64,000 nucleotides of DNA, from the NCBI GenBank assembly GCA_963827165.1, contig CAWGZR010000005.1:800001-864000 (forward strand). The letters run 5' to 3'. Under the pieces are notes generated by a model. It saw nothing but the letters and a program-made list of their open reading frames with translations. It did no database searches and was not told the origin of the DNA. Of the stretch, positions 4,864 to 53,304 are shown piece after piece. A program made the translations under genes and the position numbers. Position 1 is the first letter of the stretch. Every line of letters starts with the position of its first letter. This stretch comes from Candidatus Bathyarchaeota archaeon (GTDB lineage Archaea; Thermoproteota; Bathyarchaeia; Bathyarchaeales; Bathycorpusculaceae).

Positions 4864-5694
4864 CTATTTAACCAAACTCAAAATTATTTCGTGCATTTGA
4901 AGGTTATTCGAAGCTACAAAGCTCACCGTTTGCTTAGGGTCCAACACAACGTTCACTTCCTGATTAGACAGCGTTGTCACTCTTCCCCCTGCCTCCTTGA
5001 TGATTAGGAACGCGGCGGCGACATCGGTAGTTCGCAGTTTTCCACGAAGGTCAACAAAAGCGTCCGTCGAACCGTCAGCTACGTAGCAGAGCTCCAAAGC
5101 GTTGGCTCCGAAATGGCGGATATGCTTAGTTTTTTCAATAAGTCCGGTCACTTTTGGCGCGATCTGTTTGACTTTGTAAGTGTTCAAGTCTAAACCTATC
5201 AAGGCATCATCTAACGAAATGGTTTTTGACGGTTCGATCTTTTTTCCGTCCCGAAATGCTCCTTCGCCCAAGAAGGCGGTGTAAGTCACGTCATGGAAGA
5301 GGTCAGAAACCATGCCCGCGTAGACATCCGCAAGCCAAGACTTTCCTGAAATTGCGACCGAACAGGCATAGAAAGGCAACCCGTGCATGAAGTTTGTGCT
5401 ACCGTCAACTGGGTCAACCGTGACAAAACACTCCTCGGCAGACGCGCCGAAATTTTTGATTCCTGATTCCTCGCTGATAAGCGTGAAAGAAACGTCGTGC
5501 TGTTTTAGAGTCTCAACGATTGCCTTTTCAGCTGCCAAATCCATCGGTTTCATAGCATCTCCTCCGGCGCCTGAACCCAAGTTAGGCTGCATTTCCTTGA
5601 TCGTTTTGAGGCAGGGTTTGATGCTATTTTGGACATTGTTTTTGCATTCCATAAAGATTTTCTGCCAATTGTTTTGCTTTTGAGTTTTCGTCAT
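4864..5694 (-). CDS. suhB: Inositol monophosphatase / fructose-1,6-bisphosphatase (archaeal bifunctional family)
   Basis: SEE, DPVDGSTNF and DVAAAFLIIKEAGG motifs. Confidence 0.9.
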   Translation of the reverse strand: MTKTQKQNNWQKIFMECKNNVQNSIKPCLKTIKEMQPNLGSGAGGDAMKPMDLAAEKAIVETLKQHDVSFTLISEESGIKNFGASAEECFVTVDPVDGSTNFMHGLPFYACSVAISGKSWLADVYAGMVSDLFHDVTYTAFLGEGAFRDGKKIEPSKTISLDDALIGLDLNTYKVKQIAPKVTGLIEKTKHIRHFGANALELCYVADGSTDAFVDLRGKLRTTDVAAAFLIIKEAGGRVTTLSNQEVNVVLDPKQTVSFVASNNLQMHEIILSLVK

Positions 5695-5800
5695 AGGTCT
5701 TCCTGCTTGTTGTTATTAGCGGGGGGCGTGTTGATAAATGCTGACCCAAAATTTGAGCTCAGAACAATCGAAAGAAATCAGTTAAACAATAGTCTAAATC

Positions 5801-5816
5801 CGAAATGCTTATATTT
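5801..5816 (+). promoter_or_regulatory. Candidate BRE/TATA promoter of the aromatic operon
   Basis: cgaaatgc-TTATATTT about 40 nt upstream of the leader ATG at 5855. Confidence 0.55.
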
Positions 5817-5854
5817 TCTGGATAATGACTCATTCTGCAAGGTTCGAAGCTTCA

Positions 5855-5938
5855 ATGTCTAATCTCGCAAGCAAAAAAGCAAACGCTGTATCATGGTTCC
5901 AGAGCTTCGGCTACTTTTATTATCGTTATTTTCCTTAA
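5855..5938 (+). CDS. Putative aromatic-amino-acid leader peptide MSNLASKKANAVSWFQSFGYFYYRYFP (27 aa)
   Basis: 9 of the last 14 codons are W/F/Y; lies between the promoter and the first gene of the aromatic operon; another in-frame ATG at 5825. Confidence 0.8.
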   Translation: MSNLASKKANAVSWFQSFGYFYYRYFP

Positions 5939-5976
5939 GCCCAGAACTAAAAATTTTTTTTGGCATGGTTCTGGGC
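5939..5976 (+). promoter_or_regulatory. Putative attenuator hairpin enclosing a U8 tract
   Basis: gcccagaac (5939-5947) / gttctgggc (5968-5976) perfect 9-bp inverted repeat; T8 at 5954-5961; starts at the base after the leader stop codon. Confidence 0.7.
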
Positions 5977-5994
5977 AAAGCACGGGTGTAACAA

Positions 5995-7239
5995 ATGGAG
6001 ACAACTGGCTGTAAAATGATTGTCGTTAAATTCGGGGGTTCCAGCCTTGCGGATCACGAGCGGCTCTTAAAAGCAGTGGTTGCCGTCGTTAACGAAGCCA
6101 AGAAGGGCACTCGGGTCGCCGTTGTAGTGTCCGCTATGGGTAAAACCACCGATGTTCTTATGGCGACGGCGAAGAACGCTTCCAATGGGAAACTGGAGAA
6201 AAAAGACCTCGATGACATTCTCTCAATGGGTGAACGAACCAGCATCAGAATCTTTTCGACCGCGTTGAAAACAAACGGGGTCGAATCCTGCTACTTCGAC
6301 CCAATCGACAGCAACTGGCCAATAATAACTGATTCCGCCTTCCAAAACGCCAACCCAATCCTTACAGACTGCGAAAAAAACATCCGCCAATGCGTGTTAC
6401 CGGTGATGGAAAAAGGCGTGATTCCCGTAGTTGCGGGTTTTTTGGGCAAAACCAAAGACGGCAAAATAACGACTTTGGGAAGAGGAGGAAGCGACACAAC
6501 AGCGTTTGTGCTGGCCGAAGCGTTGGGAGCCGACGAAATCATTTTGGTTACCGATGCTGATGGCATAATGTCTGCTGATCCCAAAATTCTGTCGAACGTT
6601 CAGCGACTCAAAGAAGTCGATGTGAACACGTTAGTCGGACTTGCTGATTCAGGAGCCAAATTCATCCATAGCAAAGCCTTAAAATACAAACCCAAAAACA
6701 TCAATGTCCGTGTCATTAATCACGCCAGTGGAAGCCTTTCCGAGGAAGGCACCTTGGTCACGGGTGGCTTGGCCACGGAGCTTGACGCTGAACTCGCGCA
6801 TCCTTTCCCAGTCGCTGAAATAACGGTGATAGGAAACGGCATTTCAGCCAACCCTCAAATCATTCAGGAAATGATTGAGAAAACCAAGCGGCACTCGCTG
6901 CTTTTAGGTATGTCAATGAACACCAACTCCGTCATCCTCTATGTTTCTCAAGAGAAAAACCTGGATGGCCTTTTCAACGACGTCCACAATATAGTAAAAA
7001 GCAATACAGAAACCATTGCGATGGCGGTCAAGAAAGACCTTGTCTTCATCAAAACAAGTGGTGTTGGCTTGGAAGAAACGCAAGGCATCATCGGAAAAAT
7101 CAGCGAGGATTTGCGGGTTGGCGGCATAAACATTTCAGGCATCTTAACGATAACATCTAGTATTCTCCTTTTTATGGATTGGAGTGAACGGGAAAAAGCC
7201 CTCAAACTGATTAAAAACTCTTTAAGGAGCGCTAAGTAA
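5995..7239 (+). CDS. lysC: Aspartate kinase with ACT-like C-terminal domains
   Basis: VVKFGGSS, VVSAMG.TTD, GE, TTLGRGGSDTTA, TDADGIMSADP. Confidence 0.93.
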   Translation: METTGCKMIVVKFGGSSLADHERLLKAVVAVVNEAKKGTRVAVVVSAMGKTTDVLMATAKNASNGKLEKKDLDDILSMGERTSIRIFSTALKTNGVESCYFDPIDSNWPIITDSAFQNANPILTDCEKNIRQCVLPVMEKGVIPVVAGFLGKTKDGKITTLGRGGSDTTAFVLAEALGADEIILVTDADGIMSADPKILSNVQRLKEVDVNTLVGLADSGAKFIHSKALKYKPKNINVRVINHASGSLSEEGTLVTGGLATELDAELAHPFPVAEITVIGNGISANPQIIQEMIEKTKRHSLLLGMSMNTNSVILYVSQEKNLDGLFNDVHNIVKSNTETIAMAVKKDLVFIKTSGVGLEETQGIIGKISEDLRVGGINISGILTITSSILLFMDWSEREKALKLIKNSLRSAK

Positions 7240-7248
7240 GGTGGAAAT

Positions 7249-8040
7249 ATGAATCAAGGAAAAACTCGAAGACTAAAAAGAATCATGCAGCAAGACAACC
7301 GCACAGTAATCGTGCCAATGGATCACGGAGTAACAATCGGGCCTATCCAAGGCTTAGCCAATATGCAGCAAATAATCAACCAGCTCATGAAAGGGGGAGT
7401 CGACGCTCTCCTTGTTCACAAAGGCATCGCCAAGCACACTGACATCGGAAACACAGGATTAATCGTTATGCTGTCTGGCATGTCCAACCTTAGCCCTAAC
7501 GTAAACGGCAAAGTCCAAGTGTGCAGCGTGCGGGAAGCCATCCGTATAGGGGCAGACGCGGTTTCCGTGCATGTTAACGTCGGCGCCCAAGACGAGGATA
7601 AAATGCTTTTCAACCTTGGCAAAGTTGCTGACGAATGCGAAGTTTACGGAATGCCGCTGCTTGCCATGATGTATCCTCGGGGACCCAAAATACAGAATGA
7701 ACATGCACCCGACCTTGTTGCGCATGCAGCACGAATCGGCGCTGAACTTGGTGCAGACATCATAAAAGCAAACTTCACAGGAAACATAGAAACATTCAAA
7801 ACAGTCGTGGAAAGCTGCCCAGTTCCAGTTGTGATAGCAGGAGGACCAAAATGCAAGACCTCTGAAGAGGTTCTGCAAACCACTCGCGATGCAATTTCAG
7901 CAGGGGCTTCAGGGCTTTCAATCGGACGCAACGTCTTCCAACATGAAAACCCCGCTCAAATCGTTAAGGCGCTTTCAGCAATCGTTCACGCCAGCGCCAG
8001 CGTGCAGGAAGCGCTCAAAATCCTCGGTGAGAAAGCTTGA
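7249..8040 (+). CDS. aroA': 2-amino-3,7-dideoxy-D-threo-hept-6-ulosonate (ADH) synthase, DhnA-type aldolase
   Basis: VPMDHG, MMYPRG, GAELGADIIK, AGGPK, IGRNVFQ; adjacent to DHQ synthase II. Confidence 0.9.
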   Translation: MNQGKTRRLKRIMQQDNRTVIVPMDHGVTIGPIQGLANMQQIINQLMKGGVDALLVHKGIAKHTDIGNTGLIVMLSGMSNLSPNVNGKVQVCSVREAIRIGADAVSVHVNVGAQDEDKMLFNLGKVADECEVYGMPLLAMMYPRGPKIQNEHAPDLVAHAARIGAELGADIIKANFTGNIETFKTVVESCPVPVVIAGGPKCKTSEEVLQTTRDAISAGASGLSIGRNVFQHENPAQIVKALSAIVHASASVQEALKILGEKA

Positions 8041-9080
8041 AGGAACTCTGGGTTGAAATCGAGCAAGCAGCTTCACAGCAAGAAAAAGAAAACTTGCTGA
8101 GTACCGCACATGAAAGCGCGGATGTAGTTCTCGAAGGGGCAGAAGCTAGTACTCGTCAAGGCAAAATAGACATAGTATTCCTCGCTGAGCTAAACGAAAA
8201 AAAGATTTCTCAAGCCAAAACTGACGGCAGAAAAACCGCCGTTAAAATTAATATAAGAGGGAAAGAAGACGAGAACCGGGCTGCCAAAGCCGCTGAGTTA
8301 GGTGTCGACTACATAATTATTGCCACCAACGATTGGCGAGTCATACCATTGGAGAACTTAATTGCTAAGGCGCATGGGGGCAAAAGCAAACTAGTAGCAG
8401 AAGTCGCTACCGCGCAGGATGCCAAAGTTGTCCTTGAAGCCTTAGAGCTGGGAACAGACGGTGTACTGCTTAAAACCTCAAATTCAAACGAACTCGCCAA
8501 AACAGTGAAACTTGTCAAAGGGCAGATGCCTAAGGTGGAGTTAACAACCGCGAAAGTTCTCTCCATCCAACCAATCGGCACAGGCGCCAGGGTCTGCGTA
8601 GACACAGTTGATTTAATGGCTCCCGGCGAAGGAATGCTTGTCGGCTGCCAATCCGCGGGGTTCTTTCTGGTGGAAGCTGAAGTGAACGAGAATCCGTATG
8701 TGCAATCTAGACCTTTTCGCGTGAACGCGGGGCCAGCGTCACATTACACGTTAACGTCGCTGCAAAGCACCAGGTACTTGTCTGAACTGAAGGCAGGCGA
8801 CGAAGTCTTAATCGTCAACAGAGAAGGAAAAGTTAGAATAACCAATGTTGGAAGGTCAAAAATAGAGTTCCGACCGCTGATCCTCATTGAAGCGCAAGCG
8901 GACGACGCAAAAATAAAAACCATATTGCAAAACGCTGAAACCATCCGCCTAGTAACGCCCAAAGCATCCAAACCCGTCACCGAACTGAAAGTCAACGATG
9001 AAGTCCTTGTCCATTTAGCCGCGAAGGGTGGCAGACACTTCGGCGTTTCCGTGCCAGAAGAAACGGTGATTGAGAAGTGA
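8037..9080 (+). CDS. aroB': 3-dehydroquinate synthase II
   Basis: DWRVIPLENLIA, RVCVDT, RPFRVNAG, LQNAETIRL, GRHFG. Confidence 0.95.
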   Translation: MKELWVEIEQAASQQEKENLLSTAHESADVVLEGAEASTRQGKIDIVFLAELNEKKISQAKTDGRKTAVKINIRGKEDENRAAKAAELGVDYIIIATNDWRVIPLENLIAKAHGGKSKLVAEVATAQDAKVVLEALELGTDGVLLKTSNSNELAKTVKLVKGQMPKVELTTAKVLSIQPIGTGARVCVDTVDLMAPGEGMLVGCQSAGFFLVEAEVNENPYVQSRPFRVNAGPASHYTLTSLQSTRYLSELKAGDEVLIVNREGKVRITNVGRSKIEFRPLILIEAQADDAKIKTILQNAETIRLVTPKASKPVTELKVNDEVLVHLAAKGGRHFGVSVPEETVIEK

Positions 9081-9760
9081 CCATGAGAATTTGCGTTTCA
9101 ATCCTACCGAAAAACTGCTTAGAGGCATTAGATCTCATTAAATGTGCAGAAACAGCCAAAGCCGACCTCATCGAAGTTAGGTTGGACCATCTCGAAATAT
9201 CCACAAACCTAAAGGAAATTACCAAGAGCACAAAAATACCGTTAATCGCGACCCGTAAGCTGACTAGCGAGAACGGTTTTTTTTCTGGAACGGAAGCTGA
9301 AAAGGAACAAAGTCTTCTGAACGCTGCTGAAAACGGTTTCGAGTATGTTGACGTTGATCTGTCAAGCCCAAACCATCAGGAAACAGCCGAAAAAATTAAG
9401 CAATTAGGCAGAAAACTTATCCTTTCCTACCACAAATCCGACGGTACCTTAAGCTGCTCTGCACTGGAGAATATTCTGGACGAAGAAATCTCCTGCGGCG
9501 CCAACGTCTGCAAAATCGTGGTAACAGCTAAGAAAATCGAGGACAACTTGGCAATGCTTAATTTCGTTGCTTCCCATTCAAGCAAAGCTAAACTTGTCTG
9601 TTTTTGCATGGGTGAAGCGGGCAAGGTTTCAAGGCTTCTTTCCCCGATGTTCGGTGCCTTCTTCACTTTTGCTTCGCTTGAACAGGGCAGCGAAACGGCG
9701 AAAGGGCAAATGTCGATTAGCGAAATGAAAACTGCATACGACCTCTTAGGAGGACCTTGA
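9077..9760 (+). CDS. aroD: Type I 3-dehydroquinate dehydratase
   Basis: EVRLD, ILSYH, CKI, FCMGEAGKVSR, TAKGQ. Confidence 0.92.
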   Translation: MTMRICVSILPKNCLEALDLIKCAETAKADLIEVRLDHLEISTNLKEITKSTKIPLIATRKLTSENGFFSGTEAEKEQSLLNAAENGFEYVDVDLSSPNHQETAEKIKQLGRKLILSYHKSDGTLSCSALENILDEEISCGANVCKIVVTAKKIEDNLAMLNFVASHSSKAKLVCFCMGEAGKVSRLLSPMFGAFFTFASLEQGSETAKGQMSISEMKTAYDLLGGP

Positions 9761-9763
9761 GAG

Positions 9764-10630
9764 ATGCTTGTTTCAGGGAAAACCAAGATTTTCGGAGTAA
9801 TCGGAGACCCCATTGAGCACAGCCTAAGCCCAATCATCCAAAATGCAGCGTTTGCAGCCTCAAAACTTGACTGCGCTTTCTTGGCGTTTAAAGTAAAAGA
9901 CTCTGAGTTGGGAAAAGCCCTGGATGGCGTACGAGGGTTAGACATTCAAGGGCTCAATGTCACTATGCCGCATAAAACCGGTATTCTCGGCTTCTTAGAT
10001 GAAGTTGATCAGACAGCCAAGCTATTGAAGGCAGTTAACACGGTTAAGAACAAGGAAGGAAAACTCTTAGGGTTCAATACTGACGGTGCCGGCGCAACGG
10101 CAGCGCTAAGAGAAAACGGCGTTGAGCTCAAAGGCAAAAAAATAATGTTACTTGGGGCAGGTGGGGCTGCGAGGGCAATAGGTTTTGCATTGGCTGAGCA
10201 AGCGGGCGAGCTTTCAATTTTGAATCGGTCAATTCAGCCTGCCGCCGAGTTGGCTGAACTAGTTTATCACGAGTTCAATACCAAGGTTTTCGCATACACA
10301 CTTTCACCGTTGACAGTTAGAGGAACTCTTATTGATGCTGACCTGTTGATTAATGCTACTTCAGTCGGGATGGAGCCAAACGACAAAGAAAACATAGTGG
10401 ATCCCAGGTGGCTTAAGTCTGACTTGGTGGTAATGGATATAGTGTACAACCCTATTGAAACCCGACTTGCGAAAAACGCGAAGAAGGCAGGCGCAAAAGT
10501 CGTCAGCGGTATTGAAATGCTGATTTATCAGGGGGCGGCATCGTTTGAAATATGGACTGGTCAAAAGGCGCCAATTGGAGTTATGAGAGAGGCAGCGTTT
10601 AATCATTTGGAGAAGGAGCAGAAGAGTTGA
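9764..10630 (+). CDS. aroE: Shikimate dehydrogenase
   Basis: HSLSP, NVTMPHK, AVNT, NTDG, GAGGAARA, NATSVGM, DIVYNP. Confidence 0.96.
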   Translation: MLVSGKTKIFGVIGDPIEHSLSPIIQNAAFAASKLDCAFLAFKVKDSELGKALDGVRGLDIQGLNVTMPHKTGILGFLDEVDQTAKLLKAVNTVKNKEGKLLGFNTDGAGATAALRENGVELKGKKIMLLGAGGAARAIGFALAEQAGELSILNRSIQPAAELAELVYHEFNTKVFAYTLSPLTVRGTLIDADLLINATSVGMEPNDKENIVDPRWLKSDLVVMDIVYNPIETRLAKNAKKAGAKVVSGIEMLIYQGAASFEIWTGQKAPIGVMREAAFNHLEKEQKS

Positions 10631-11496
10631 TGGGGCAAGCTACGGCTATTGCGTATGGCGCTGCGACGATTGTTAACGCGATGGCGACCGGGAAAGGCGC
10701 CGCTTTTGGAGTTGATCTGTACACAAAGGCACAGGTAAAATTGATTGATGATCCTTCGATTATCAAAGCGGAGATAGCTTCTGACCCCAAAGAAAGCACC
10801 CTTCTGATGGAGAAAACTGTCGCTCGGGTTCTACAACGATTCAATGCAGAAAAGAGGTTCGGTGTAAAAGTTAAAACTTGGTCAAACATCCCCATTGCCC
10901 GAGGACTTAAAAGCAGCAGTGCAGCAGCGAACGCGGTGGCTTTGGCGACTACGGCGGCGCTTGGTGAAATGGAAGATGACTTTAGAATTATCAATTTGGG
11001 TGTGGATGCCGCTTTCGACGCGAAAGTTACGGTTACAGGAGCTTTCGATGATGCGTGCGCTTCTTATTTTGGCGGCGTAGTCCTTACTGATAACTTGGAA
11101 CGGAAAATTGTTGGGCAGTTGTCGCTTCCTGACGATTTAGTCGTGCTTTTTCACGTTCCTCCAAGGAAAGCCTATTCGGCTGACTCGAACATTGAAAGGC
11201 TTAAAAACATGACATCGCTGGTTCAGGTTGCTTACGAGGAGGCTTTAGCGGGAAAGTTTTGGGAGGCTTTGACGCTTAACGGTTTACTTTACTCCTCTGC
11301 TTGGGGGTACGACTCATCAATCGCAATTGACGCATTAGCTGCTGGAGCAGTGGCGGCTGGGCTTTGTGGTAAAGGTCCCGCAGTGACTGCTGTTATGCCT
11401 AAAGATAAGGTTGATTCGGTGAGGGCTGCATTTCAAAATTTCGGCGGCGAAGTCTTACAGGCCGGTTTCAACCGGGAAAAAGCAAAGGTGATTTAG
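10627..11496 (+). CDS. aroK: Archaeal GHMP-family shikimate kinase
   Basis: IVNAMATGKG, IPIARGLKSSSA, TGAFDDACAS. Confidence 0.95.
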   Translation: MMGQATAIAYGAATIVNAMATGKGAAFGVDLYTKAQVKLIDDPSIIKAEIASDPKESTLLMEKTVARVLQRFNAEKRFGVKVKTWSNIPIARGLKSSSAAANAVALATTAALGEMEDDFRIINLGVDAAFDAKVTVTGAFDDACASYFGGVVLTDNLERKIVGQLSLPDDLVVLFHVPPRKAYSADSNIERLKNMTSLVQVAYEEALAGKFWEALTLNGLLYSSAWGYDSSIAIDALAAGAVAAGLCGKGPAVTAVMPKDKVDSVRAAFQNFGGEVLQAGFNREKAKVI

Positions 11497-11498
11497 TA

Positions 11499-12803
11499 AT
11501 GGTGGATGTAATCGTTAAAAAATCTGAAAAGCTCAGCGGAGAAATCTGCGCTCCCCCCTCAAAATCCTACACTCAGCGGATGCTTATCGCAGCGGCTCTG
11601 TCCAACGGCACAGGTAAAGTGTCAAACCCGCTTCTTTCGGATGATACGGAAGCAACCCTGCGCGCGATAACGTCTTTGGGCTCTGAAATAACGTTTGAGG
11701 AAAACTGTTGGGCCGTCAAAGGTGCAGCTCCGATTAAAAACGCGAAATCACTTGTCGACTGCGGAGAATCTGGAGCAACATTGCGCTTCATGATACCCAT
11801 AGCTGCCTTGGCGAGTGAGCCCTCAATTCTCCTTTTCCGAGGTTCTCTTGACCGCAGACCTATTGAACCTCTAATAAAAAGCCTAGATGACTTGGGCGCC
11901 AAGGTTCATTTGAAGAAATTCGGAGATAAAGATGCGGTGGTTGTCGAGGGCGGCGGAATCCTCGGAGGCCAAACCTCTATCCGCGGAGATGTTAGTTCTC
12001 AGTTTATTTCAGGCTTAATGTTTGCTTGTCCGATGGCGAAGGTGGATACCGAAATCGTGCTCGAAACGCCCTTGGAGTCTGTTGGATACGCAAAAATGAC
12101 TTGGGATGTACTTTCGAAGCACGGGGTTAGAGTGGACGTTTACGGCAACTTCGAGCGCCTCTTAATCCCTGCCAACCAAAACTTCAAGCCTATCGACTGC
12201 AGAGTGCCCGGTGACTTCTCCTCAGCCGCATTTCTCCTTGCAGCCGCAGCCGTCACTAACTCGAAAGTTCAAGTAGACGACCTCGATTACGCGAACACTC
12301 AGGGCGACAAAGCCATTCTAGGAATCCTTAAACAGATGGGTGCAGCGGGGAAAGTGTGCGAAAACAGAGTGGAAATAGACGGCTTGGGCACCCCCCTTGA
12401 GCCCTTGAACCTTGACGCAAAAAACATTCCTGACCTTGTTCCAGTTTGCACGGCTCTCGCATGCTTTGCTAAAGGCACCTCAAAAATAACCGGCGCGAAA
12501 AGGCTCAGGTTCAAAGAGTCAGACAGGCTGCAATCCCTGCAAGCCGAATTCTCAAAGATGGGTGCGGAGATAGAAGTAGACTCGGATGGGTTAACCATTA
12601 AAGGTAACTCTGCCTTGCACGGCGCCGTAATCGACTCCCACAATGACCATCGTGTGGCGATGGCTTGCGCTGTTGCTGCTCTTTGCGCTGAAAAGCAAAC
12701 TATCATTCAAAACGCACAGTGCGTCAGAAAGTCTTATCCGCAGTTCTTCCTTCATTTGAAACAGTTAGGAGCGGAAATCGTTGGCGGGAAATTCGACAGG
12801 TAA
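11499..12803 (+). CDS. aroA: EPSP synthase (3-phosphoshikimate 1-carboxyvinyltransferase)
   Basis: PPSKSYTQR, CGESGATLRF, SSQFIS, LRFKESDR, HNDHRVAM, KSYP. Confidence 0.97.
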   Translation: MVDVIVKKSEKLSGEICAPPSKSYTQRMLIAAALSNGTGKVSNPLLSDDTEATLRAITSLGSEITFEENCWAVKGAAPIKNAKSLVDCGESGATLRFMIPIAALASEPSILLFRGSLDRRPIEPLIKSLDDLGAKVHLKKFGDKDAVVVEGGGILGGQTSIRGDVSSQFISGLMFACPMAKVDTEIVLETPLESVGYAKMTWDVLSKHGVRVDVYGNFERLLIPANQNFKPIDCRVPGDFSSAAFLLAAAAVTNSKVQVDDLDYANTQGDKAILGILKQMGAAGKVCENRVEIDGLGTPLEPLNLDAKNIPDLVPVCTALACFAKGTSKITGAKRLRFKESDRLQSLQAEFSKMGAEIEVDSDGLTIKGNSALHGAVIDSHNDHRVAMACAVAALCAEKQTIIQNAQCVRKSYPQFFLHLKQLGAEIVGGKFDR

Positions 12804-13893
12804 AGAATTTGTAGTTACCACTTTCGGCGAAAGTCACGGCAAAGTCGTAGGAGTCTTGATAGATGGTTGCCCAGCAGGCTTACCCATATCTGAGGCTGAC
12901 ATTTTGGCCGAGTTGGACAGACGCATCCCCGCTGACCCTAAAATAGTCTCCAGCAGAATTGAAAAAGACGTTCCCAAAATTCTTTCAGGCGTTTTTAACG
13001 GCTTCACGACTGGCGCTCCAATAGCCGTTACCGTTGAAAACAAAGAGGTAGAATCAGCGGATTACGAAGCAATCAAGGATTTACCCCGTCCTGGGCACGC
13101 GGATTACCCAGCGAAAGTTCGATATGGCGGGTTTAACGATTACCGCGGTGGCGGCCGCTTCAGCGGAAGAGTTACAGTTGCTTTGATAATGGCTGGAGCC
13201 ATAGCCAAAAAACTGCTAAGCCGCTTCGACATTGACGTTTTAGCATATACAAGAGCCATAGGCAAAGTTAGAAGCGACAAGAAGTTCAGCACCCAAGAAA
13301 TCGAAAGGAATCGCTACGCCGTGACAACGCGATGTCCTGACCCTAAATGTGGAGAAAGAATGGAGCAAGCCATTGTTGACGCTAGAAGAGAGAGCGAAAG
13401 CATCGGCGGAGTAATTGAATGCATCGTTCTTAACGTTCCAGCGGGGGTTGGCGAGCCAATGTTTGATTCGCTTGACGCCGACTTATCTAAAGCTTTGATT
13501 AATGTGCCCGCCGTTAAGGGTGTGGAGTTCGGGTTGGGCTTCGAGATCACCGAGTTAAAAGGCTCAGAAAGTAACGATGCATACGTAATGCAAAATGGCA
13601 AAGTCACAACTTCAACGAATAACATGGGTGGAATCTTGGGCGGCTTATCCAACGGCATGCCCATCATTATGCGCGTGGCAATTAAGCCGACGCCTTCCAT
13701 CTTCAAAACACAGAAAACCATTGATCTATCAAGCATGGAAGAAACATCTGTAAGCGTCAATGGCAGGCACGACCCATGCGTGGTTCCAAAAGCCGTCCCC
13801 GCCGTGGAAGCCGCCGTTGCTGTGACGTTAGCTGACCACATGATTCGTGTAGGTTTCATACCGAAAATCTTGGAGGCAAAGAAAAAATGTTAG
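12781..13893 (+). CDS. aroC: Chorismate synthase
   Basis: FGESHG, RPGHAD, GGGRFSGR, KPTPSI, GRHDPC. Confidence 0.97.
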   Translation: MAGNSTGKEFVVTTFGESHGKVVGVLIDGCPAGLPISEADILAELDRRIPADPKIVSSRIEKDVPKILSGVFNGFTTGAPIAVTVENKEVESADYEAIKDLPRPGHADYPAKVRYGGFNDYRGGGRFSGRVTVALIMAGAIAKKLLSRFDIDVLAYTRAIGKVRSDKKFSTQEIERNRYAVTTRCPDPKCGERMEQAIVDARRESESIGGVIECIVLNVPAGVGEPMFDSLDADLSKALINVPAVKGVEFGLGFEITELKGSESNDAYVMQNGKVTTSTNNMGGILGGLSNGMPIIMRVAIKPTPSIFKTQKTIDLSSMEETSVSVNGRHDPCVVPKAVPAVEAAVAVTLADHMIRVGFIPKILEAKKKC

Positions 13894-14150
13894 ACGAGCT
13901 TGAACTTTACAGAAAAGAAGTTGACCAAGTTGACGATTTGATTTTGAAATCGTTGACTGAAAGAGTCAAGATATGCATGGCGATAGGTTTGTTGAAGAAA
14001 AAGCGTGGACTGCCAGTTAAAGATATTTCCCGAGAAAATGATGTTTACAAAAAGGTAAAGGCGAAATCTGCCAAATTGTGCCTGGATTCCGCGAGGGTTG
14101 AGGCAGTTTACCGCGAAATAGTTAATATGTGCAGTGCAGTTCAAGAGTAA
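13887..14150 (+). CDS. Chorismate mutase (AroQ class)
   Basis: LELYRKEVDQVDDLILKSLTER, K...D.SRE; operon context. Confidence 0.9.
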   Translation: MLDELELYRKEVDQVDDLILKSLTERVKICMAIGLLKKKRGLPVKDISRENDVYKKVKAKSAKLCLDSARVEAVYREIVNMCSAVQE

Positions 14151-14180
14151 GAAATAATCTGAAAAGGAAAGTTTACGGTA

Positions 14181-15260
14181 ATGCTCTACGAAATAAACGA
14201 GAAAGCCATAAGACTTGAGAACGAAGGAAAGAAAATAATCCGCTTAAACTTAGGTGACCCGGACCTTGCAACGCCACCTGAAATAGTGGAAGCTGCGTAC
14301 GCCGCAATGAAGGCAGGCAAAACAAAGTATGCCTCAGCTTACGGCGAAGAAAAATTAAGGCAGAAACTCGCGAAGATTCATGGAGTTAAACCAGAGAACG
14401 TAGTTATTACGCCTGGTTCAAAATGGGGCGTTTTCGCCACGTTATATCTGACGATGAAAGGCGGCGGCAACATCATCGTTCCCACACCTTACTGGACCGC
14501 CTACGATTTGATGGCTAAAAGCCTCGGTGCCGAAACAAGACTGTTGAGAACCGAAATGGAAAACGGCTGGAAAGTGGATTTGGGCAAGCTTGAAGCCACG
14601 ATTGACAAAGACACAAAAATGATTATACTCAATAACCCCAATAATCCAACAAGCAAAGTCATGGATCCCAAAACCTTAGACGGTATAGTGGAAATCGCCA
14701 ACAAGAGGGGTATAACCATCCTTTCAGACGAAGTTTACGGTCCAATTAGCTTTGTAAAAACAAAAAGCATCCTTGAATATGACGGCAACAACACCCATAT
14801 TCTCTCAAACGGCTTCTCAAAAATGTTCACAATGACAGGCTGGCGAATCGGCTACATAATAGCAAACAAGCCGCTAATCGACAACATAACAAAACTGAAC
14901 CAAATTACCATAAACAACGTTCCTGTTTTCATACAGGAAGCAGCTTTGAAAGGGCTTGAAATGCAGAAGAGCCTGACCAAAACAATAGAAACCGAATATG
15001 AGGAACGCGCAAAGATGGCGTGTAAAACCTTGGCGAAAGCAGGGCTATCCTTCACCGAACCCGAAGCACCCTTCTACGTGTTTCCCAAACGCAAAGGCTT
15101 AGACTCCGAAAAATTCGCGTTAAAACTGCTTGACAAAGGCGTGGCCGTTGCACCCGGAACCTCTTTCGGAGACTACCGAGAACATTTCCGCATCTCCCTA
15201 ACCGCGCCCAGAGAAGAAATCACGATCGGATTGGATAAAATAAGCGAGGCGCTTAAATGA
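14181..15260 (+). CDS. Class I/II PLP aminotransferase, probably aromatic/aspartate
   Basis: NNPNNPT, SDEVY, FSKMFTMTGWRIG, FRIS. Confidence 0.9.
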   Translation: MLYEINEKAIRLENEGKKIIRLNLGDPDLATPPEIVEAAYAAMKAGKTKYASAYGEEKLRQKLAKIHGVKPENVVITPGSKWGVFATLYLTMKGGGNIIVPTPYWTAYDLMAKSLGAETRLLRTEMENGWKVDLGKLEATIDKDTKMIILNNPNNPTSKVMDPKTLDGIVEIANKRGITILSDEVYGPISFVKTKSILEYDGNNTHILSNGFSKMFTMTGWRIGYIIANKPLIDNITKLNQITINNVPVFIQEAALKGLEMQKSLTKTIETEYEERAKMACKTLAKAGLSFTEPEAPFYVFPKRKGLDSEKFALKLLDKGVAVAPGTSFGDYREHFRISLTAPREEITIGLDKISEALK

Positions 15261-16132
15261 AAACCGCCGTTCTCGGCGCGGGAAAAATGGGTGTTTGGTT
15301 CGCAAAATTTTGCGAAGAGAACGGCGATAGCGTAATCCTGTCAGATAGAAAATCTGAGAAGCTGACGAAACTTGGTAAAGAGTTAGGGGTCGAAACCACT
15401 ACTAACTTCGTGGAAGCGGCTAAGGTAGCTGACGAAATAATGATTTGTGTTTCAATCAGCAGCTTCGAAGAAGTTGTAAAAAAAATAGGCCCACATATTC
15501 ATGATGGGCAAGTGGTTACTGACATATGCTCAATCAAAGAGTACCCCGTCAAAGTCATGCATGAGTACATCAAGCACGGCTTGGTTTTAGGTACTCACCC
15601 CGTTTTCGGTCCGGGAAGCAAAGGCGTAAAACACAAAGCTTACGTGCTTACCCCAACGTCTCCCGAGGAGGAGAAATATGCCGACGGCTTCAAAAGGTGG
15701 CTGGAAAAAGAAGAAGCACACGTTTTTGTGATGACGCCTCAGAAACATGACCAACTCATGTCCGTCGTTCTAGGACTGCCTCATTTCCTCGGATTAGCTG
15801 CCTGCGAAACCCTTCTCGAACAAAAGGACTTCCCTGAAACCAAGAAGATGGCAGGGACAACTTACCGCATGCTATTTACTCTTGCAGAGGTAGCCGCTCT
15901 TGAAACTCCTGACCTATACGCTAACCTGCAGATGAAGCTGCCTGAGATGGGAAAAATCGAAGACCTCTACATCGCCAAGGCGCAGGAGTGGCTGGACTTG
16001 CTTAAGAAAAAGGACCCGTTGGTCATCATTAACCGAATGGAGCAGCTCAGAGCTAAGCTGCTGAAAGCTGACCCAAACTTCGTCGAATCCTACGAAATCA
16101 TGTACCGAATGCTTGAAGCGACGGAAAAGTAG
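15257..16132 (+). CDS. tyrA: Prephenate dehydrogenase
   Basis: GAGKMG, DICSIK, HPVFGP, HDQLMSVVLGLPH. Confidence 0.93.
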   Translation: MKTAVLGAGKMGVWFAKFCEENGDSVILSDRKSEKLTKLGKELGVETTTNFVEAAKVADEIMICVSISSFEEVVKKIGPHIHDGQVVTDICSIKEYPVKVMHEYIKHGLVLGTHPVFGPGSKGVKHKAYVLTPTSPEEEKYADGFKRWLEKEEAHVFVMTPQKHDQLMSVVLGLPHFLGLAACETLLEQKDFPETKKMAGTTYRMLFTLAEVAALETPDLYANLQMKLPEMGKIEDLYIAKAQEWLDLLKKKDPLVIINRMEQLRAKLLKADPNFVESYEIMYRMLEATEK

Positions 16133-16140
16133 GAAGTTAG

Positions 16141-16761
16141 ATGCACAAATCATTGGTTGTGAACTGTTCTTTAAAATCTAAAAGCGAGGCTTTAGTTGAA
16201 GCCGTTGGAAAGTTCAGCGAATATGAGGTTATCCATTTTAGCGATGTCAATGAGGGCTATCTAGTGGGCGAAGATTTTGACGCAGTTGTCCTCAGCGGTT
16301 CTGGAGCTCGAATAGTTGACCCGGCTGACAGGCGATTCTTCGAAGGCGTTGTCAAATTGATTAAAAACTGTGACTTGCCCACATTGGGCATTTGCTATGG
16401 TCACCAGTTGCTCTGCTGGGCTTTTGGCGCCAAAGTTGGGTCGCTTGCGCAGCCAGTTTTGGACCGTTTTGAGTCGGTACGGGTAGTTGAGGCCTACGGT
16501 ATATTCGGCGGTTTTAGAGAAAATCAGATAGTGCGTTTGTCAGAAAACCATTACGATTACGTCTTAAAAGAAAATCTTGACCAGGCGGGCTTCCATATTT
16601 TGGCGGATTCAGTTTCATGCGAAGTGGAAGCAGTTAAGCACAAAAGCAAACCGATTTACGGCGTTCAATTCCATCCTGAACGCATAAAAGCAAAAGACGA
16701 ATTGCATCCCGAGGGTCACAGGATCATCGAAAACTTTTACATGAAAGTGGTTAAAAAATAA
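16141..16761 (+). CDS. Stand-alone class I glutamine amidotransferase
   Basis: LSGS, GICYGHQ and QFHPE catalytic triad motifs. Confidence 0.88.
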   Translation: MHKSLVVNCSLKSKSEALVEAVGKFSEYEVIHFSDVNEGYLVGEDFDAVVLSGSGARIVDPADRRFFEGVVKLIKNCDLPTLGICYGHQLLCWAFGAKVGSLAQPVLDRFESVRVVEAYGIFGGFRENQIVRLSENHYDYVLKENLDQAGFHILADSVSCEVEAVKHKSKPIYGVQFHPERIKAKDELHPEGHRIIENFYMKVVKK

Positions 16762-16835: not shown

Positions 16836-17271
16836 GTGGAATTTGAGAAGGCTCCAGCTGGACTTGTCGAATTCATCGCAGAAAAGGTGAAGAACGTAAA
16901 CTTCGAGTACCGCCAAATGTTCGGGTACCCCATCCTACTTCATCAACGGCAACATGTTTGTAGGACTTTTCGGTGATAAACTACTTCTGAGGCTTTCATA
17001 CGTTGACTCAGTGGAAATTTTTAAAACCCACCCGGACTCTGAGTTTTTTGAGTCAATGCCTGAAAGAGCAATGAAAGGCTATGTCGCACTTCCAAGATCA
17101 GTTTATTCAAACGACGCTGAGTTTGAGAAATTTCTCAATAAATCGATCGAATATGTTTCGTCGTTGCCTCCCAAAAAAACGAAAGCTAAGAAGAAAAGCG
17201 ACTATTCACCTATTTGTAGGGACAATCCCAAAATCTTGAAAAAAATTTATGTTGAAATAGCTCCAATTTAG
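16836..17271 (+). pseudogene. TfoX/Sxy N-terminal-domain protein with +1 frameshift in a C4 run at 16928-16931 (possibly a sequencing error)
   Basis: GTG start; RQMFGYP in one frame continues as SYFINGNMFVG...MKGYV.LP in the next. Confidence 0.75.
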
Positions 17272-18080
17272 ATTACTCGCGGGTAGGACCCTAGAATTTT
17301 CACGAATGTAGCGTATTTTTCCAAGGCTTCCAAAGCTTCTGCACAGCGTTTTTCGGTTCGATGACCTTCGAAGTCAAGGTAGAAGTTGTACTGCCATGCG
17401 GTGGTTTTTGTTGGTCTTGATTCGATTCTTGTCAAGTTGATATTTCTTGAAGCAAACTCTCCGAGGGCGTGGTAAAGGGTTCCAGGGGCGTGTTTGGCTG
17501 AGAAGATGATTGAGGTTTTGTCGTCTCCTGTCGGCGCCGCATCTTCATGTGACAACACCAGAAATCGGGTATAGTTCGATGCGTTATCAGCTATGTCTCT
17601 GGAGAGAATTTTCATGCCATAGAGACCTGCCGCTTTTTCGCTGGCGATTGCTGCAGCGTTGAAAAGGCATTTTTCTTTTATGAGCTTAACGCTTCCAGCT
17701 GTGTCATAGACAGGGATGATTTCCCATTTTTGTTTTTCAAGGTAGTTTCGGCATTGCGCCAGGGCCTGGGGATGCGAATAAACCGTTTCGATGTCCTCAA
17801 GTTTGGTTTGTGGGTTGCCGATAAGGACATGGGCAAGTTTCACCGCCACTTCTCCGCTGACTTTGAGGTCGTAGGCCAGGAACAAGTCATAGTTTTGGTT
17901 AACGCTGCCTTCGATCGAATTCTCGATTGGGATAACTCCAGCTGGAACCGCTGCATTCTTTACTGATTCGAAGACGTCACGGAAGTCCTTGCATGGAACT
18001 GGCTCCACTTTGCTGCCGAAGAACTTGTAGACCGCCATTTCGCTGTAGGCGCCGCTTTCACCTTGGAAGGCTACCTTCAC
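17268..18080 (-). CDS. pheA: Prephenate dehydratase with ACT domain
   Basis: PIENSIEGSV, SHPQALAQC, NYTRF, TRIESRP, LGSYP. Confidence 0.96.
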   Translation of the reverse strand: MKVAFQGESGAYSEMAVYKFFGSKVEPVPCKDFRDVFESVKNAAVPAGVIPIENSIEGSVNQNYDLFLAYDLKVSGEVAVKLAHVLIGNPQTKLEDIETVYSHPQALAQCRNYLEKQKWEIIPVYDTAGSVKLIKEKCLFNAAAIASEKAAGLYGMKILSRDIADNASNYTRFLVLSHEDAAPTGDDKTSIIFSAKHAPGTLYHALGEFASRNINLTRIESRPTKTTAWQYNFYLDFEGHRTEKRCAEALEALEKYATFVKILGSYPRVI

Positions 18081-51801: not shown

Positions 51802-53304
51802 TCAAACCCTGCCCGTGTCCTTGGTCAACTCTGCAAGCCATGCGATTTTGTTCTCTTCAAACTGCCCTTCCGATACTCTCCACTCCCAGTTATGCAGCAG
51901 CCGGCTCGGATAATTCATTCTCGCCTCTGAACCAAGCCCTAAAATATCTTGAAGCGCGAGGAGGCAGAGCTTCGCCTTTGACTTCAGGGCAAGCTTAACG
52001 AATTCGATGTGGATTTCTTCTTCTGAAACCCGTTTGCCCAAGGTCTTGAAAACGCGATTTTTCTGCTCCTTAGATGCTTCGTCGCAAAACCATCCCCTTA
52101 CAGTGTTTGTGTCATGCGTTCCAGTGAAGACCGCCGAGTTGTAAATCTGGTTCTTCGGCAAGTTGGGGTTGACCTCTGAATCATCGAAAGCGAAAATCAA
52201 TACACGCATCCCCGGGATTCTTGTGCACTTCAGATTTTGGCGGACGGCTTCGGTGACCCTGCCCAGATCTTCAGCGATGAAAGGCAACTTTGGAAAGTTC
52301 TGTTTTAATGCGGAGAAGAAGCTTTTTGACGGCGTTTTTATCCACCTTCCCTTTTTAGCGGTTTTCGCCGCCGCTGGAATTTGCCAGTAAGCCGTGTAAC
52401 CGCGGAAATGATCCAGCCGAAGAATGTCGACAAGCCGCAAAGTGTGGCTTGCTCTTTTCATCCACCAACCAAAAGCAGTCTTCTTCATTTCACGCCAGTC
52501 GTACACAGGGTTTCCCCATCGCTGCCCAGTTTGGCTGAAATAATCAGGCGGCACACCCCCCACAAACCCCGGGTGCTTGTGCCCATTCAACTTGAAGAGT
52601 TCAGGGTGAACCCAAACATCGGCGCTGTCATCGCTCACATAAAAGGGTAAGTCGCCAATCAAACTAACTTTTTTGACTCTGCAACAATTCACCAGAGCGT
52701 TTAGCTGCGCAAAAAAAACAAACTGCGCAAACTTTTCTAGCTTCACAAGGTCTTGCAGCTCCAACTCTTTACGCTTCAAAGCATCGGGGTTTCGGTCACG
52801 AAGCAGCTTTGGCCAAAGATACCACGGTTTCTCGGCCTTATCCATTAGCGCTGCATAAAGAGCGTAATCGTTAAGCCAATCAGAGTTTTCTGTACAGAAC
52901 TTTTCGAAGCCTCGCCTCGAAATCTCGCCGAGGCCCCGCTTAAAGTTGCAGTACGCTTTCTTTATCATCGCTTTTTTCGCTGCGGTCACAGCCTCGAAAT
53001 CGACTCGGCCAGCAGGAAGCGTCAGTGTATCGCCGTTTTGGCCGGAAAGTAGGCATTCTTTAACCAGCAGTTCGGGGCTGATTAGCAAGGTGTTGCCTGC
53101 AAAAGCCGAGGTTGACTGATAGGGGGAGTTTCCGTTTTGGATGGTTGTCGGCGTTAACGGGAGAATATGCCAGTAACCCTGGTTAGTCTGTGAGAGCAAA
53201 TCGACAAAGCGGTAACTGGATGGACCCAAATCCCCGATTCCAAAGTCTGATGGCAACGAAGTGACGTGGACAAGAATACCGCTTGCCCTCTCCAAAATGG
53301 TCAT
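51802..53304 (-). CDS. malQ: 4-alpha-glucanotransferase (GH77)
   Basis: SPY.S.SAFAGN, GVPPDYFS.TGQ.WGNP, RLDHFRG, AEDLG, THD. Confidence 0.96.
   Translation of the reverse strand: MTILERASGILVHVTSLPSDFGIGDLGPSSYRFVDLLSQTNQGYWHILPLTPTTIQNGNSPYQSTSAFAGNTLLISPELLVKECLLSGQNGDTLTLPAGRVDFEAVTAAKKAMIKKAYCNFKRGLGEISRRGFEKFCTENSDWLNDYALYAALMDKAEKPWYLWPKLLRDRNPDALKRKELELQDLVKLEKFAQFVFFAQLNALVNCCRVKKVSLIGDLPFYVSDDSADVWVHPELFKLNGHKHPGFVGGVPPDYFSQTGQRWGNPVYDWREMKKTAFGWWMKRASHTLRLVDILRLDHFRGYTAYWQIPAAAKTAKKGRWIKTPSKSFFSALKQNFPKLPFIAEDLGRVTEAVRQNLKCTRIPGMRVLIFAFDDSEVNPNLPKNQIYNSAVFTGTHDTNTVRGWFCDEASKEQKNRVFKTLGKRVSEEEIHIEFVKLALKSKAKLCLLALQDILGLGSEARMNYPSRLLHNWEWRVSEGQFEENKIAWLAELTKDTGRV

Follow-up and report, generated by a model that had tools for sequence, protein, structure and literature searches.

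A putative ribosome-sensed leader, with an aromatic-codon open reading frame and a stop-abutting hairpin, before the aromatic amino-acid operon of a Bathyarchaeia archaeon

The window (the whole stretch of 64,000 nucleotides (nt) that was analysed, from contig CAWGZR010000005.1 of a Candidatus Bathyarchaeota archaeon) carries a 12-gene operon for aromatic amino-acid biosynthesis and, directly before it, a leader with a short open reading frame (ORF) rich in aromatic codons and a hairpin that abuts the stop codon of this ORF. The leader is considered here as a candidate attenuator sensed by the ribosome. Coordinates are positions within the window, and the sequence features reported in an earlier note, which had proposed such an attenuator from the DNA alone, were re-read base by base. 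The leader ORF, the 9-bp stem, the run of eight U (U8) in its loop, the two copies of an octamer and the downstream operon were all found at the positions reported, exact to the base. The features to which the text refers are as follows.

5801..5816, plus strand: BRE/TATA promoter (transcription factor B recognition element and TATA box), CGAAA followed by TTATATTT, full string cgaaatgcttatattt (from the sequence)
5844..5852, plus strand: segment P, the strand of helix P:Q in the 5' untranslated region, TCGAAGCTT, 3 nt 5' of the leader ATG (from the minimum-free-energy (MFE) fold and the alignment)
5855..5938, plus strand: leader ORF, 27 codons plus TAA, ATG at 5855 and stop at 5936-5938 (from the sequence and the ORF list)
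5894-5932, plus strand: putative regulatory Trp, Phe and Tyr codons of the leader ORF (from the sequence)
5902..5910, plus strand: segment Q, codons Ser17-Phe18-Gly19, GAGCTTCGG, the partner of P (from the fold and the alignment)
5939..5976, plus strand: stop-abutting hairpin with 5' arm 5939-5947, loop 5948-5967 and 3' arm 5968-5976 (from the sequence and the fold)
5984..5997, plus strand: Shine-Dalgarno (SD)-like GGGTG at 5984-5988 and kinase ATG at 5995-5997 (from the sequence)
5995..16761, plus strand: operon presumed to be controlled, 12 genes from AA-kinase to GATase (from the ORF list and Pfam matches)

The Pfam matches give the operon order as AA_kinase, DeoC-type aldolase (aroA'), DHQS II (aroB'), aroD, aroE, GHMP shikimate kinase, EPSP synthase (aroA), chorismate synthase (aroC), CM_2 chorismate mutase, aminotransferase, prephenate dehydrogenase (tyrA) and GATase, and the genes overlap or are spaced by 3-30 nt according to the ORF list. 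The first gene, with its ATG at 5995, encodes a 414-aa amino-acid kinase (aspartate-kinase-like), and the DeoC-type aldolase is the aroA' of the aspartate-semialdehyde route. The genome comprises 3.13 Mb with 44.5% G+C; its trp operon lies on a separate contig (C11), and no trp genes are present in the aro operon.

The promoter block CCGAAAYGCTTATATTTT keeps a constant spacing to the leader ATG throughout the genus in the alignment, and by the spacing from the TATA box the transcription start site (TSS) would lie near 5839, about 16 nt 5' of the leader ATG. The leader ORF, which is also nested in a longer listed ORF, specifies the 27-aa peptide MSNLASKKANAVS-WFQSFGYFYYRYFP (whole, MSNLASKKANAVSWFQSFGYFYYRYFP), in which no aromatic residue occurs in the first 13 positions and one Trp, four Phe and four Tyr occur in the last 14. 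The base after the stop codon begins a perfect 9-bp stem, GCCCAGAAC (5939-5947) paired with GTTCTGGGC (5968-5976), whose 20-nt loop contains A5 and then U8 at 5954-5961. The octamer catggttc is present at 5892-5899 and again at 5964-5971. GGGTG and the kinase ATG lie 8 nt and 19 nt past the stem, respectively, both outside the hairpin.

For an estimate of how often such a leader peptide occurs by chance, windows with at least 9 aromatic residues in 14 were counted in the whole genome, and 17 ORFs among 55,245 with a length of 14-60 aa had one; apart from the leader ORF, most of the remaining 16 are poly-Phe frames. For the comparison among relatives, the kinase was used as the query in 41 genomes. 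Ortholog-level loci were obtained in 23 of 24 further genomes of the genus, the remaining one (65% complete) yielding a paralog-level kinase match only, and in three genomes of other genera in the order; public genome contigs added 17 Bathyarchaeia loci with 49-90% identity. After dropping L032 (a repeat of L013) and L036 (a repeat of L021), 42 distinct loci remained of 44. A short ORF with an aromatic tail was present at 27/27 orthologous loci from the genome search and at 17/17 of the public Bathyarchaeia loci, that is, at all 42 distinct loci, and in the 44 loci it ended 34-81 nt 5' of the kinase start (an approximate start, derived from tblastn). Five paralog-level kinase loci (L028-L030, L048 and L049), which stand behind another gene, had neither the aromatic ORF nor the hairpin (0/5). 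This comparative conservation is decisive evidence against chance, and it bears out the expectation of the earlier note that a short aromatic-codon ORF would recur in orthologous leaders of the aromatic operon.

Across the 42 loci the leader ORF has a length of 12-29 codons, and an ATG stands 23-29 codons 5' of the stop in 39 of them, the exceptions being L041 (12 codons), L044 (GTG start) and L045 (several ATGs). Taken together, the last 14 residues contain 172 Tyr, 156 Phe and 9 Trp, which amounts to 337 of 586 residues (57.5%), in comparison with 22 of 519 (4.2%) in the residues that precede them and a genome background of about 8.7%. This richness is specific to the reading frame: the last 14 codons include a mean of 8.0 aromatic codons in frame (range 5-10) versus 1.9 and 1.7 in the other two frames, and those frames carry stops in 28 and 2 of the 42 loci, respectively. 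The N-terminal halves vary freely yet are open in 41/41 loci, and shuffled versions are open about half the time. Within the genus the C-terminal motif S-F-[DGE]-Y-x-F-Y-Y is well conserved, and in distant genera the composition of the tail is kept and its sequence is not (FFGSFGYFGYRG, MMFYRYRFFFYR, CFAYQFFYFYQ and YFEFYFSGYWYMFNY).

Trp occurs in the tail of 9 of the 42 loci, and five further Trp occur in the heads, which differs from the description of the leader in the earlier note as a sensor of all three aromatic aminoacyl-tRNAs. By these counts Trp appears facultative and the leader reads as a Tyr/Phe gauge, which matches an operon with chorismate mutase, an aminotransferase and tyrA and without trp genes. 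The Tyr and Phe codons of the 42 leaders mostly end in U (TAT 115 versus TAC 57; TTT 84 versus TTC 72), whereas the long ORFs of the genome favour the C-ending codons (TAT 5927 versus TAC 10087; TTT 8480 versus TTC 10838); this preference may tune the sensitivity to tRNA charging or may just reflect A+T-rich leader DNA.

Folding was done per locus on the stretch from the stop codon to the kinase start, with z scores calculated against shuffled sequences. A stable hairpin was obtained in 42/42 loci, with free energies from -13.2 to -34.6 kcal/mol, a mean z of -5.2 and every locus below -2. Its first paired base lies from -3 to +5 nt relative to the end of the stop codon, the offset being exactly 0 in 26 loci and between -3 and +1 in 41, and the inner part of the hairpin measures 14-44 nt. 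From the end of the hairpin to the kinase start there are 15-22 nt in 32 of the 42 loci, and GGGTG or GGTG is kept 10-14 nt 5' of the kinase ATG across loci. The full hairpin motif is unique in the genome, and the 9-mer arm has 33 copies on both strands, roughly as many as would be estimated for any random 9-mer in some 6.3 Mb.

The alignment shows hardly any variation of the arms within the genus, and the covariation there is weak (93.9% of cells paired versus 92.4% after shuffling; five pairs changed on both sides) because the sequences are nearly invariant. The stronger evidence for the hairpin is the folding of the divergent loci one by one: in L026, L027, L045 and L047 the arms are wholly different sequences at the same place (for example, GAAGAAACC/GGTTTCTTC and GGAGAAACC/GGTTTCTCC), and variants changed on both sides were read from the folds of L044 (GCCCAGG/CCTGGGC) and L037 (GGATA/TATTC). 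In the alignment, two hairpin pairs changed on both sides (A-U to G-C once and C-G to A-U three times), and at the pairs of columns 117-151 and 121-147 all ten one-sided changes (C to U or A to G) keep a U-G or G-U pair on the plus strand. Judged from these sequence changes, the hairpin behaves as a plus-strand RNA helix and not as a protein operator or DNA palindrome. Covarying stems, one of the signs proposed in the earlier note for the relatives, were seen in the two pairs changed on both sides and in the arms replaced in four loci.

A second helix, P:Q, is formed by GGTTCGAAGC, the first bases of the predicted transcript, which end 3-6 nt 5' of the ATG, and AGCTTCGA, which spans the codons Ser-Phe-Asp/Gly/Glu where the aromatic run begins. 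The MFE fold of the focal locus contains this helix, the same target is found in 34 of the 42 loci (with a variant in L044), and 95.8% of its alignment cells are paired. AGC TTC GA/GG of segment Q is nearly invariant, synonymous positions included, and the end of the helix reads U-G in L001-type and A-U in L002-type sequences in the alignment. P:Q was not found in L025, L026, L041, L042, L045 and L047, and it is therefore regarded as a lineage-specific accessory.

Across the 42 loci, the leader coding region paired with the 5' arm no better than expected by chance (mean z -0.18; 2/42 below -2). The octamer had been taken in the earlier note as providing two mutually exclusive partners for the 5' arm. 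In the focal locus this pairing comprises 6 bp with an interruption (-7.8 kcal/mol, z -0.7) in comparison with -19.0 kcal/mol for the hairpin, and the octamer as a general alternative partner was rejected, being real in this genome and no better than shuffles across loci. The exceptions are L026 and L045, a public Bathyarchaeota contig in which 11 nt of the aromatic codon run (Arg-Phe-Phe-Ser) are perfectly complementary to the 5' arm (z -5.7); no other locus has a clear three-segment switch, and that of L045 may have been elaborated independently. Pairing of the 3' arm with the region through the kinase start gave a mean z of +0.75 with 0/42 loci below -2, and neither a fourth segment nor sequestration of the SD was found in this test of 42 loci.

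Among 20 public runs that share words with the window, two are RNA libraries; their shares are small and they were kept as contigs, of which 3 and 8 pieces, respectively, were mapped. Such contigs show neither RNA ends nor strand, carry-over of library DNA is possible, and the uncovered parts are uninformative. A contig from the RNA library of a relative (17 differences, 2 indels) begins 5 nt 5' of the leader ATG and spans 5850-6014 unbroken, including the leader ORF, the hairpin and the kinase start. This cover agrees with a TSS upstream of 5855 and with transcripts that read through, and a TSS downstream of 5855, which by the earlier note would have spoken against its proposal, is not what the relative's metatranscriptome contig indicates. 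A metatranscriptome contig with 100% identity was also observed to cover 5979-6132, starting 3 nt past the 3' end of the hairpin; the start of a contig is not an RNA end.

From the anatomy and its conservation, the element is probably a cis-acting, ribosome-sensed leader (an attenuator, broadly speaking) of the aromatic amino-acid operon. It would sense the charging of tRNA-Tyr and tRNA-Phe and, in part of the species, of tRNA-Trp as well. How the ORF is translated, how the supply is sensed, in which direction the operon responds and how termination comes about are inferred as follows. The transcript would start about 16 nt 5' of the ATG, and a ribosome would translate the 27 codons, nine of which are aromatic within the last 13. 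After its passage, P:Q would probably close the leader initiation site, so that the decision would be left to the co-transcriptional ribosome only. With the stop codon in its A site, the ribosome would cover the entire 5' arm and leave the loop U-tract, 16 nt past the stop, exposed. A footprint of about 27 nt is given for the elongating archaeal ribosome in the available part of PMC7261190. By the P-site offsets, the protected stretch would end about 9-11 nt past the stop, which suggestively matches the 9-nt 5' arm, and the geometry assumed in the earlier note, in which the ribosome at the stop covers the 5' arm, is thus upheld by a hairpin that abuts the stop and a 5' arm within the footprint of the terminating ribosome.

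When Tyr and Phe are plentiful, the ribosome would keep pace with RNA polymerase and sit on the 5' arm while the loop and the 3' arm emerge. No hairpin would then form, and about 40 nt of U-rich single strand would be exposed where coupling breaks, 57 nt before the next start. The agent of termination would be the U-tract-binding FttA/aCPSF1, helped by intrinsic termination at the U-tract; an ortholog (TIGR03675, 889 bits) is encoded in the genome. When charged tRNA-Tyr or tRNA-Phe is scarce, the ribosome would lag on the aromatic run and leave the 5' arm free, and the hairpin would fold once the 3' arm emerges, locking the U-tract in the loop beside the complementary A-run, so that the polymerase would reach the kinase start and a new ribosome would couple to it. 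Read-through upon scarcity is the right sign for a biosynthetic operon. As far as the accessible parts of the sources go, the KH domains of aCPSF1 bind U-tracts of U4 or longer (PMC8716108), and FttA engages RNA 20-36 nt behind the 3' end and needs about 36 nt of accessible nascent RNA (PMC11616081). By arithmetic, with U8 on the KH domains the polymerase would have reached about 5989, and the RNA would be cut where the 3' arm starts. That the hairpin specifically gates FttA at the U-tract is a tentative and somewhat doubtful part of the scheme. The same reserve applies to its general form, in which a single hairpin at the stop codon might compete with the terminating ribosome and so decide whether the loop U-tract is presented to the CPSF73-like FttA/aCPSF1 during the break in coupling. 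The favoured mechanism is thus essentially the earlier proposal without the octamer.

The U-tract itself was examined across the loci. A T-run of at least 5 is present in the loop in 24 of the 42 loci and one of at least 4 in 33, in 25 of which it starts 16-18 nt past the stop, usually after an A-run able to pair with it. The exposed U8 of the earlier note is accordingly retained in so far as a U-tract lies just beyond the ribosome footprint in most relatives, and it is not retained as a fixed part. By this distribution, the design often includes the U-tract but can do without it. Only in L025, L044, L045 and L047 was a U-run found after the stem; what follows the stem in the focal genus is AAAGCACGGGTG, with no U-run.

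Several points weigh against this interpretation. Nine of the 42 loci have no loop T-run of at least 4, and in the core-clade loci L023, L024, L037 and L040 no such run is found either in the loop or after the hairpin, and therefore the U-tract step cannot be the universal core. The U-runs after the hairpin in L025, L045 and L047 would predict the opposite sign if they were bacterial-type terminators. Intrinsic termination at T8 would precede the synthesis of the 3' arm, so that the hairpin cannot gate it. In the counts of substitutions by codon position there was no excess at third positions, and classical coding periodicity was not demonstrated by this test, which indels and the overlying helix keep from being decisive; the argument that the ORF is translated is therefore based on its composition and its conservation. 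The 42 loci are mutually related, and their counts overstate the independent support. The RNA support consists of two assembled contigs, and the lineage is uncultured. Finally, no cognate leader was found at the trp (C11) and his (C5) operons of the same genome, and such leaders are therefore no general habit of the organism; a genome-wide scan of upstream small ORFs for enrichment in a single residue was too noisy to use.

The same sensing of Tyr and Phe codons could have a translational output, in which the state of the hairpin or the occupancy by the ribosome beside the kinase ribosome-binding site (RBS) sets initiation at 5995, either as attenuation of the erm/cat type or as termination-reinitiation across the base of the hairpin, and the tightly coupled downstream genes follow. 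In favour of such an output, the only invariants of the 42 loci are the aromatic ORF, the stop-abutting hairpin and the short distance from hairpin to start (15-22 nt in 32/42), the loci without any U-tract fit it better, an SD-like motif stands about 7 nt past the stem in the focal locus, and genes that overlap or lie close (3-30 nt) could spread the effect by translational coupling. The SD and the start codon are outside the hairpin, however, and the 3' arm pairs with the start region no better than chance, so that nothing is visibly sequestered; moreover, simple coupling or reinitiation would lower kinase synthesis under starvation, which is the wrong sign. We consider a translational output unlikely.

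The leader ORF could instead specify a functional micropeptide whose hydrophobic aromatic tail acts in trans, for example on the kinase or at the membrane. The conservation of S-F-[DGE]-Y-x-F-Y-Y within the genus would agree with this, but the N-terminal half is unconserved, the distant genera keep the composition of the tail and not its sequence, the AGC TTC GA part of the motif is accounted for by helix P:Q, and the fixed contact of the stop codon with the hairpin would have no role; we regard a micropeptide as very improbable. Equally little credence is given to elements at the DNA level, in which the inverted repeats would be operators of dimeric repressors, or the T/A-rich TTTTATTAT a second TATA box, and the coding appearance would be incidental. 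The arms and the pair TTCGAAGC/GCTTCGA are almost invariant in the genus, beyond the strict need of a helix, and joint changes would also be expected in the palindromic half-sites of a repressor that co-evolves with them. Against this, the spacing of the arms varies with the inner part of the hairpin, the two pairs with most one-sided changes keep G-U or U-G on the plus strand only (10/10), the frame-specific aromatic richness persists without the TATA-like string in L026, L027 and L044, and the RNA contig spans the element.

In bacteria, attenuation by leader peptides is a textbook mechanism that needs coupled transcription and translation, and both coupling and polarity are documented in archaea. 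Among the enterobacterial leader-peptide attenuators for aromatic amino acids are pheL-pheA (Rfam Phe_leader) and trpL-trpE (Rfam Trp_leader). Like these, the present leader has a short ORF in the 5' leader before a biosynthetic operon with end-product codons near its end, which is one of the features that define the class, an RNA structure immediately 3' of the ORF and a U-tract, and it would follow the same presumed logic, in which the speed of the ribosome reports the supply of aminoacyl-tRNA. It differs from them in its archaeal promoter and polymerase and in Tyr as the dominant putative regulatory codon. Where pheL and trpL have exclusive antiterminator and terminator helices (segments 1:2, 2:3 and 3:4), there is here a single hairpin at the stop; the U-tract is in the loop and not after a G+C-rich stem as in an intrinsic terminator, and a further helix joins codons 17-19 to the 5' end. 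The bacterial trpL/pheL architecture ascribed to the leader in the earlier note is accordingly not supported, since a terminator/antiterminator pair is missing and the focal genus has no U-run behind the stem. A cmscan of 5000-7000 against Rfam with E up to 10 returned two unrelated weak matches only, with neither the Phe_leader nor the Trp_leader family among them.

Other arrangements of an upstream ORF (uORF) plus a hairpin are the translational attenuation of erm/cat and the ribosome shunting of caulimoviruses. As in both, the short ORF ends here at the foot of a stable hairpin and the main start lies just past the other foot. Unlike in erm/cat, the archaeal RBS is not sequestered in the hairpin, no drug or arrest-peptide logic is evident, and simple coupling has the wrong sign for a biosynthetic operon. 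With the archaeal U-tract/FttA terminators the element shares an encoded factor and a U8 that falls within the U4-8 signal and contains the required run of at least 4-5 U, as far as the available part of PMC8716108 describes them. The U-tract/FttA signals known from that part stand at gene ends and inside operons, and gating by a leader peptide and a hairpin, as proposed here, would differ from them. No published amino-acid-sensing leader peptide in archaea was found in the literature covered, which excluded subscription journals and supplements and included the available parts of PMC7858274, PMC11616081, PMC13681488, PMC7261190 and PMC8716108. The element would combine the logic of leader peptides with archaeal machinery and another expression platform.

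If the proposed mechanism is true, it would be a new form of attenuation native to Archaea, without a terminator/antiterminator switch, and ribosome-mediated control of termination would have arisen independently on archaeal, eukaryote-type machinery; if the output depends on FttA, the leader would be the first natural regulatory switch acting on this factor. The element offers a concrete, conserved and testable case, since its ORF, two helices and U-tract are defined and can be moved into a tractable archaeon. The element also matters to annotation, since gene callers overlook ORFs this short, although this one shows where the 12-gene operon truly begins. The host belongs to an abundant, uncultured lineage of soil and peat.

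Some observations concern the genes around the leader and elsewhere in the genome. The operon is headed by a dedicated amino-acid (aspartate) kinase paralog (5995-7239), and the genome has at least one other kinase of the family, at C5:125528-126685 with 38% identity, behind a different gene, which suggests that the paralog in the operon provides a private supply of aspartate-semialdehyde for the aroA'/aroB' route. At its other end the operon is closed by a class-I glutamine amidotransferase (16141-16761), possibly a subunit of the TrpG/PabA type. A prephenate dehydratase with an ACT domain (17268-18080) is encoded convergently on the opposite strand behind a LeuA-like gene, and the Phe branch is therefore outside the control of the leader.

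At the head of the trp operon (C11, about 52,380-52,420, minus strand), the TrpE frame has no ATG, GTG or TTG for more than 40 codons after an in-frame TGA, and the sole ATG there starts, in another frame, an ORF of 15 codons of which one is for Trp (MGNRLWRNSHTNQTS). An indel in the assembly, an unusual start or an overlapping uORF could account for this. A pair of hairpin-arm copies 98 nt apart inside a NifH-like gene was rejected as unrelated chance copies and not a second hairpin. Through these two copies it was noticed that the gene of a NifH/CfbC-like P-loop ATPase adjoins a radical-SAM NifB-like ORF (C4, 131,000-132,500).

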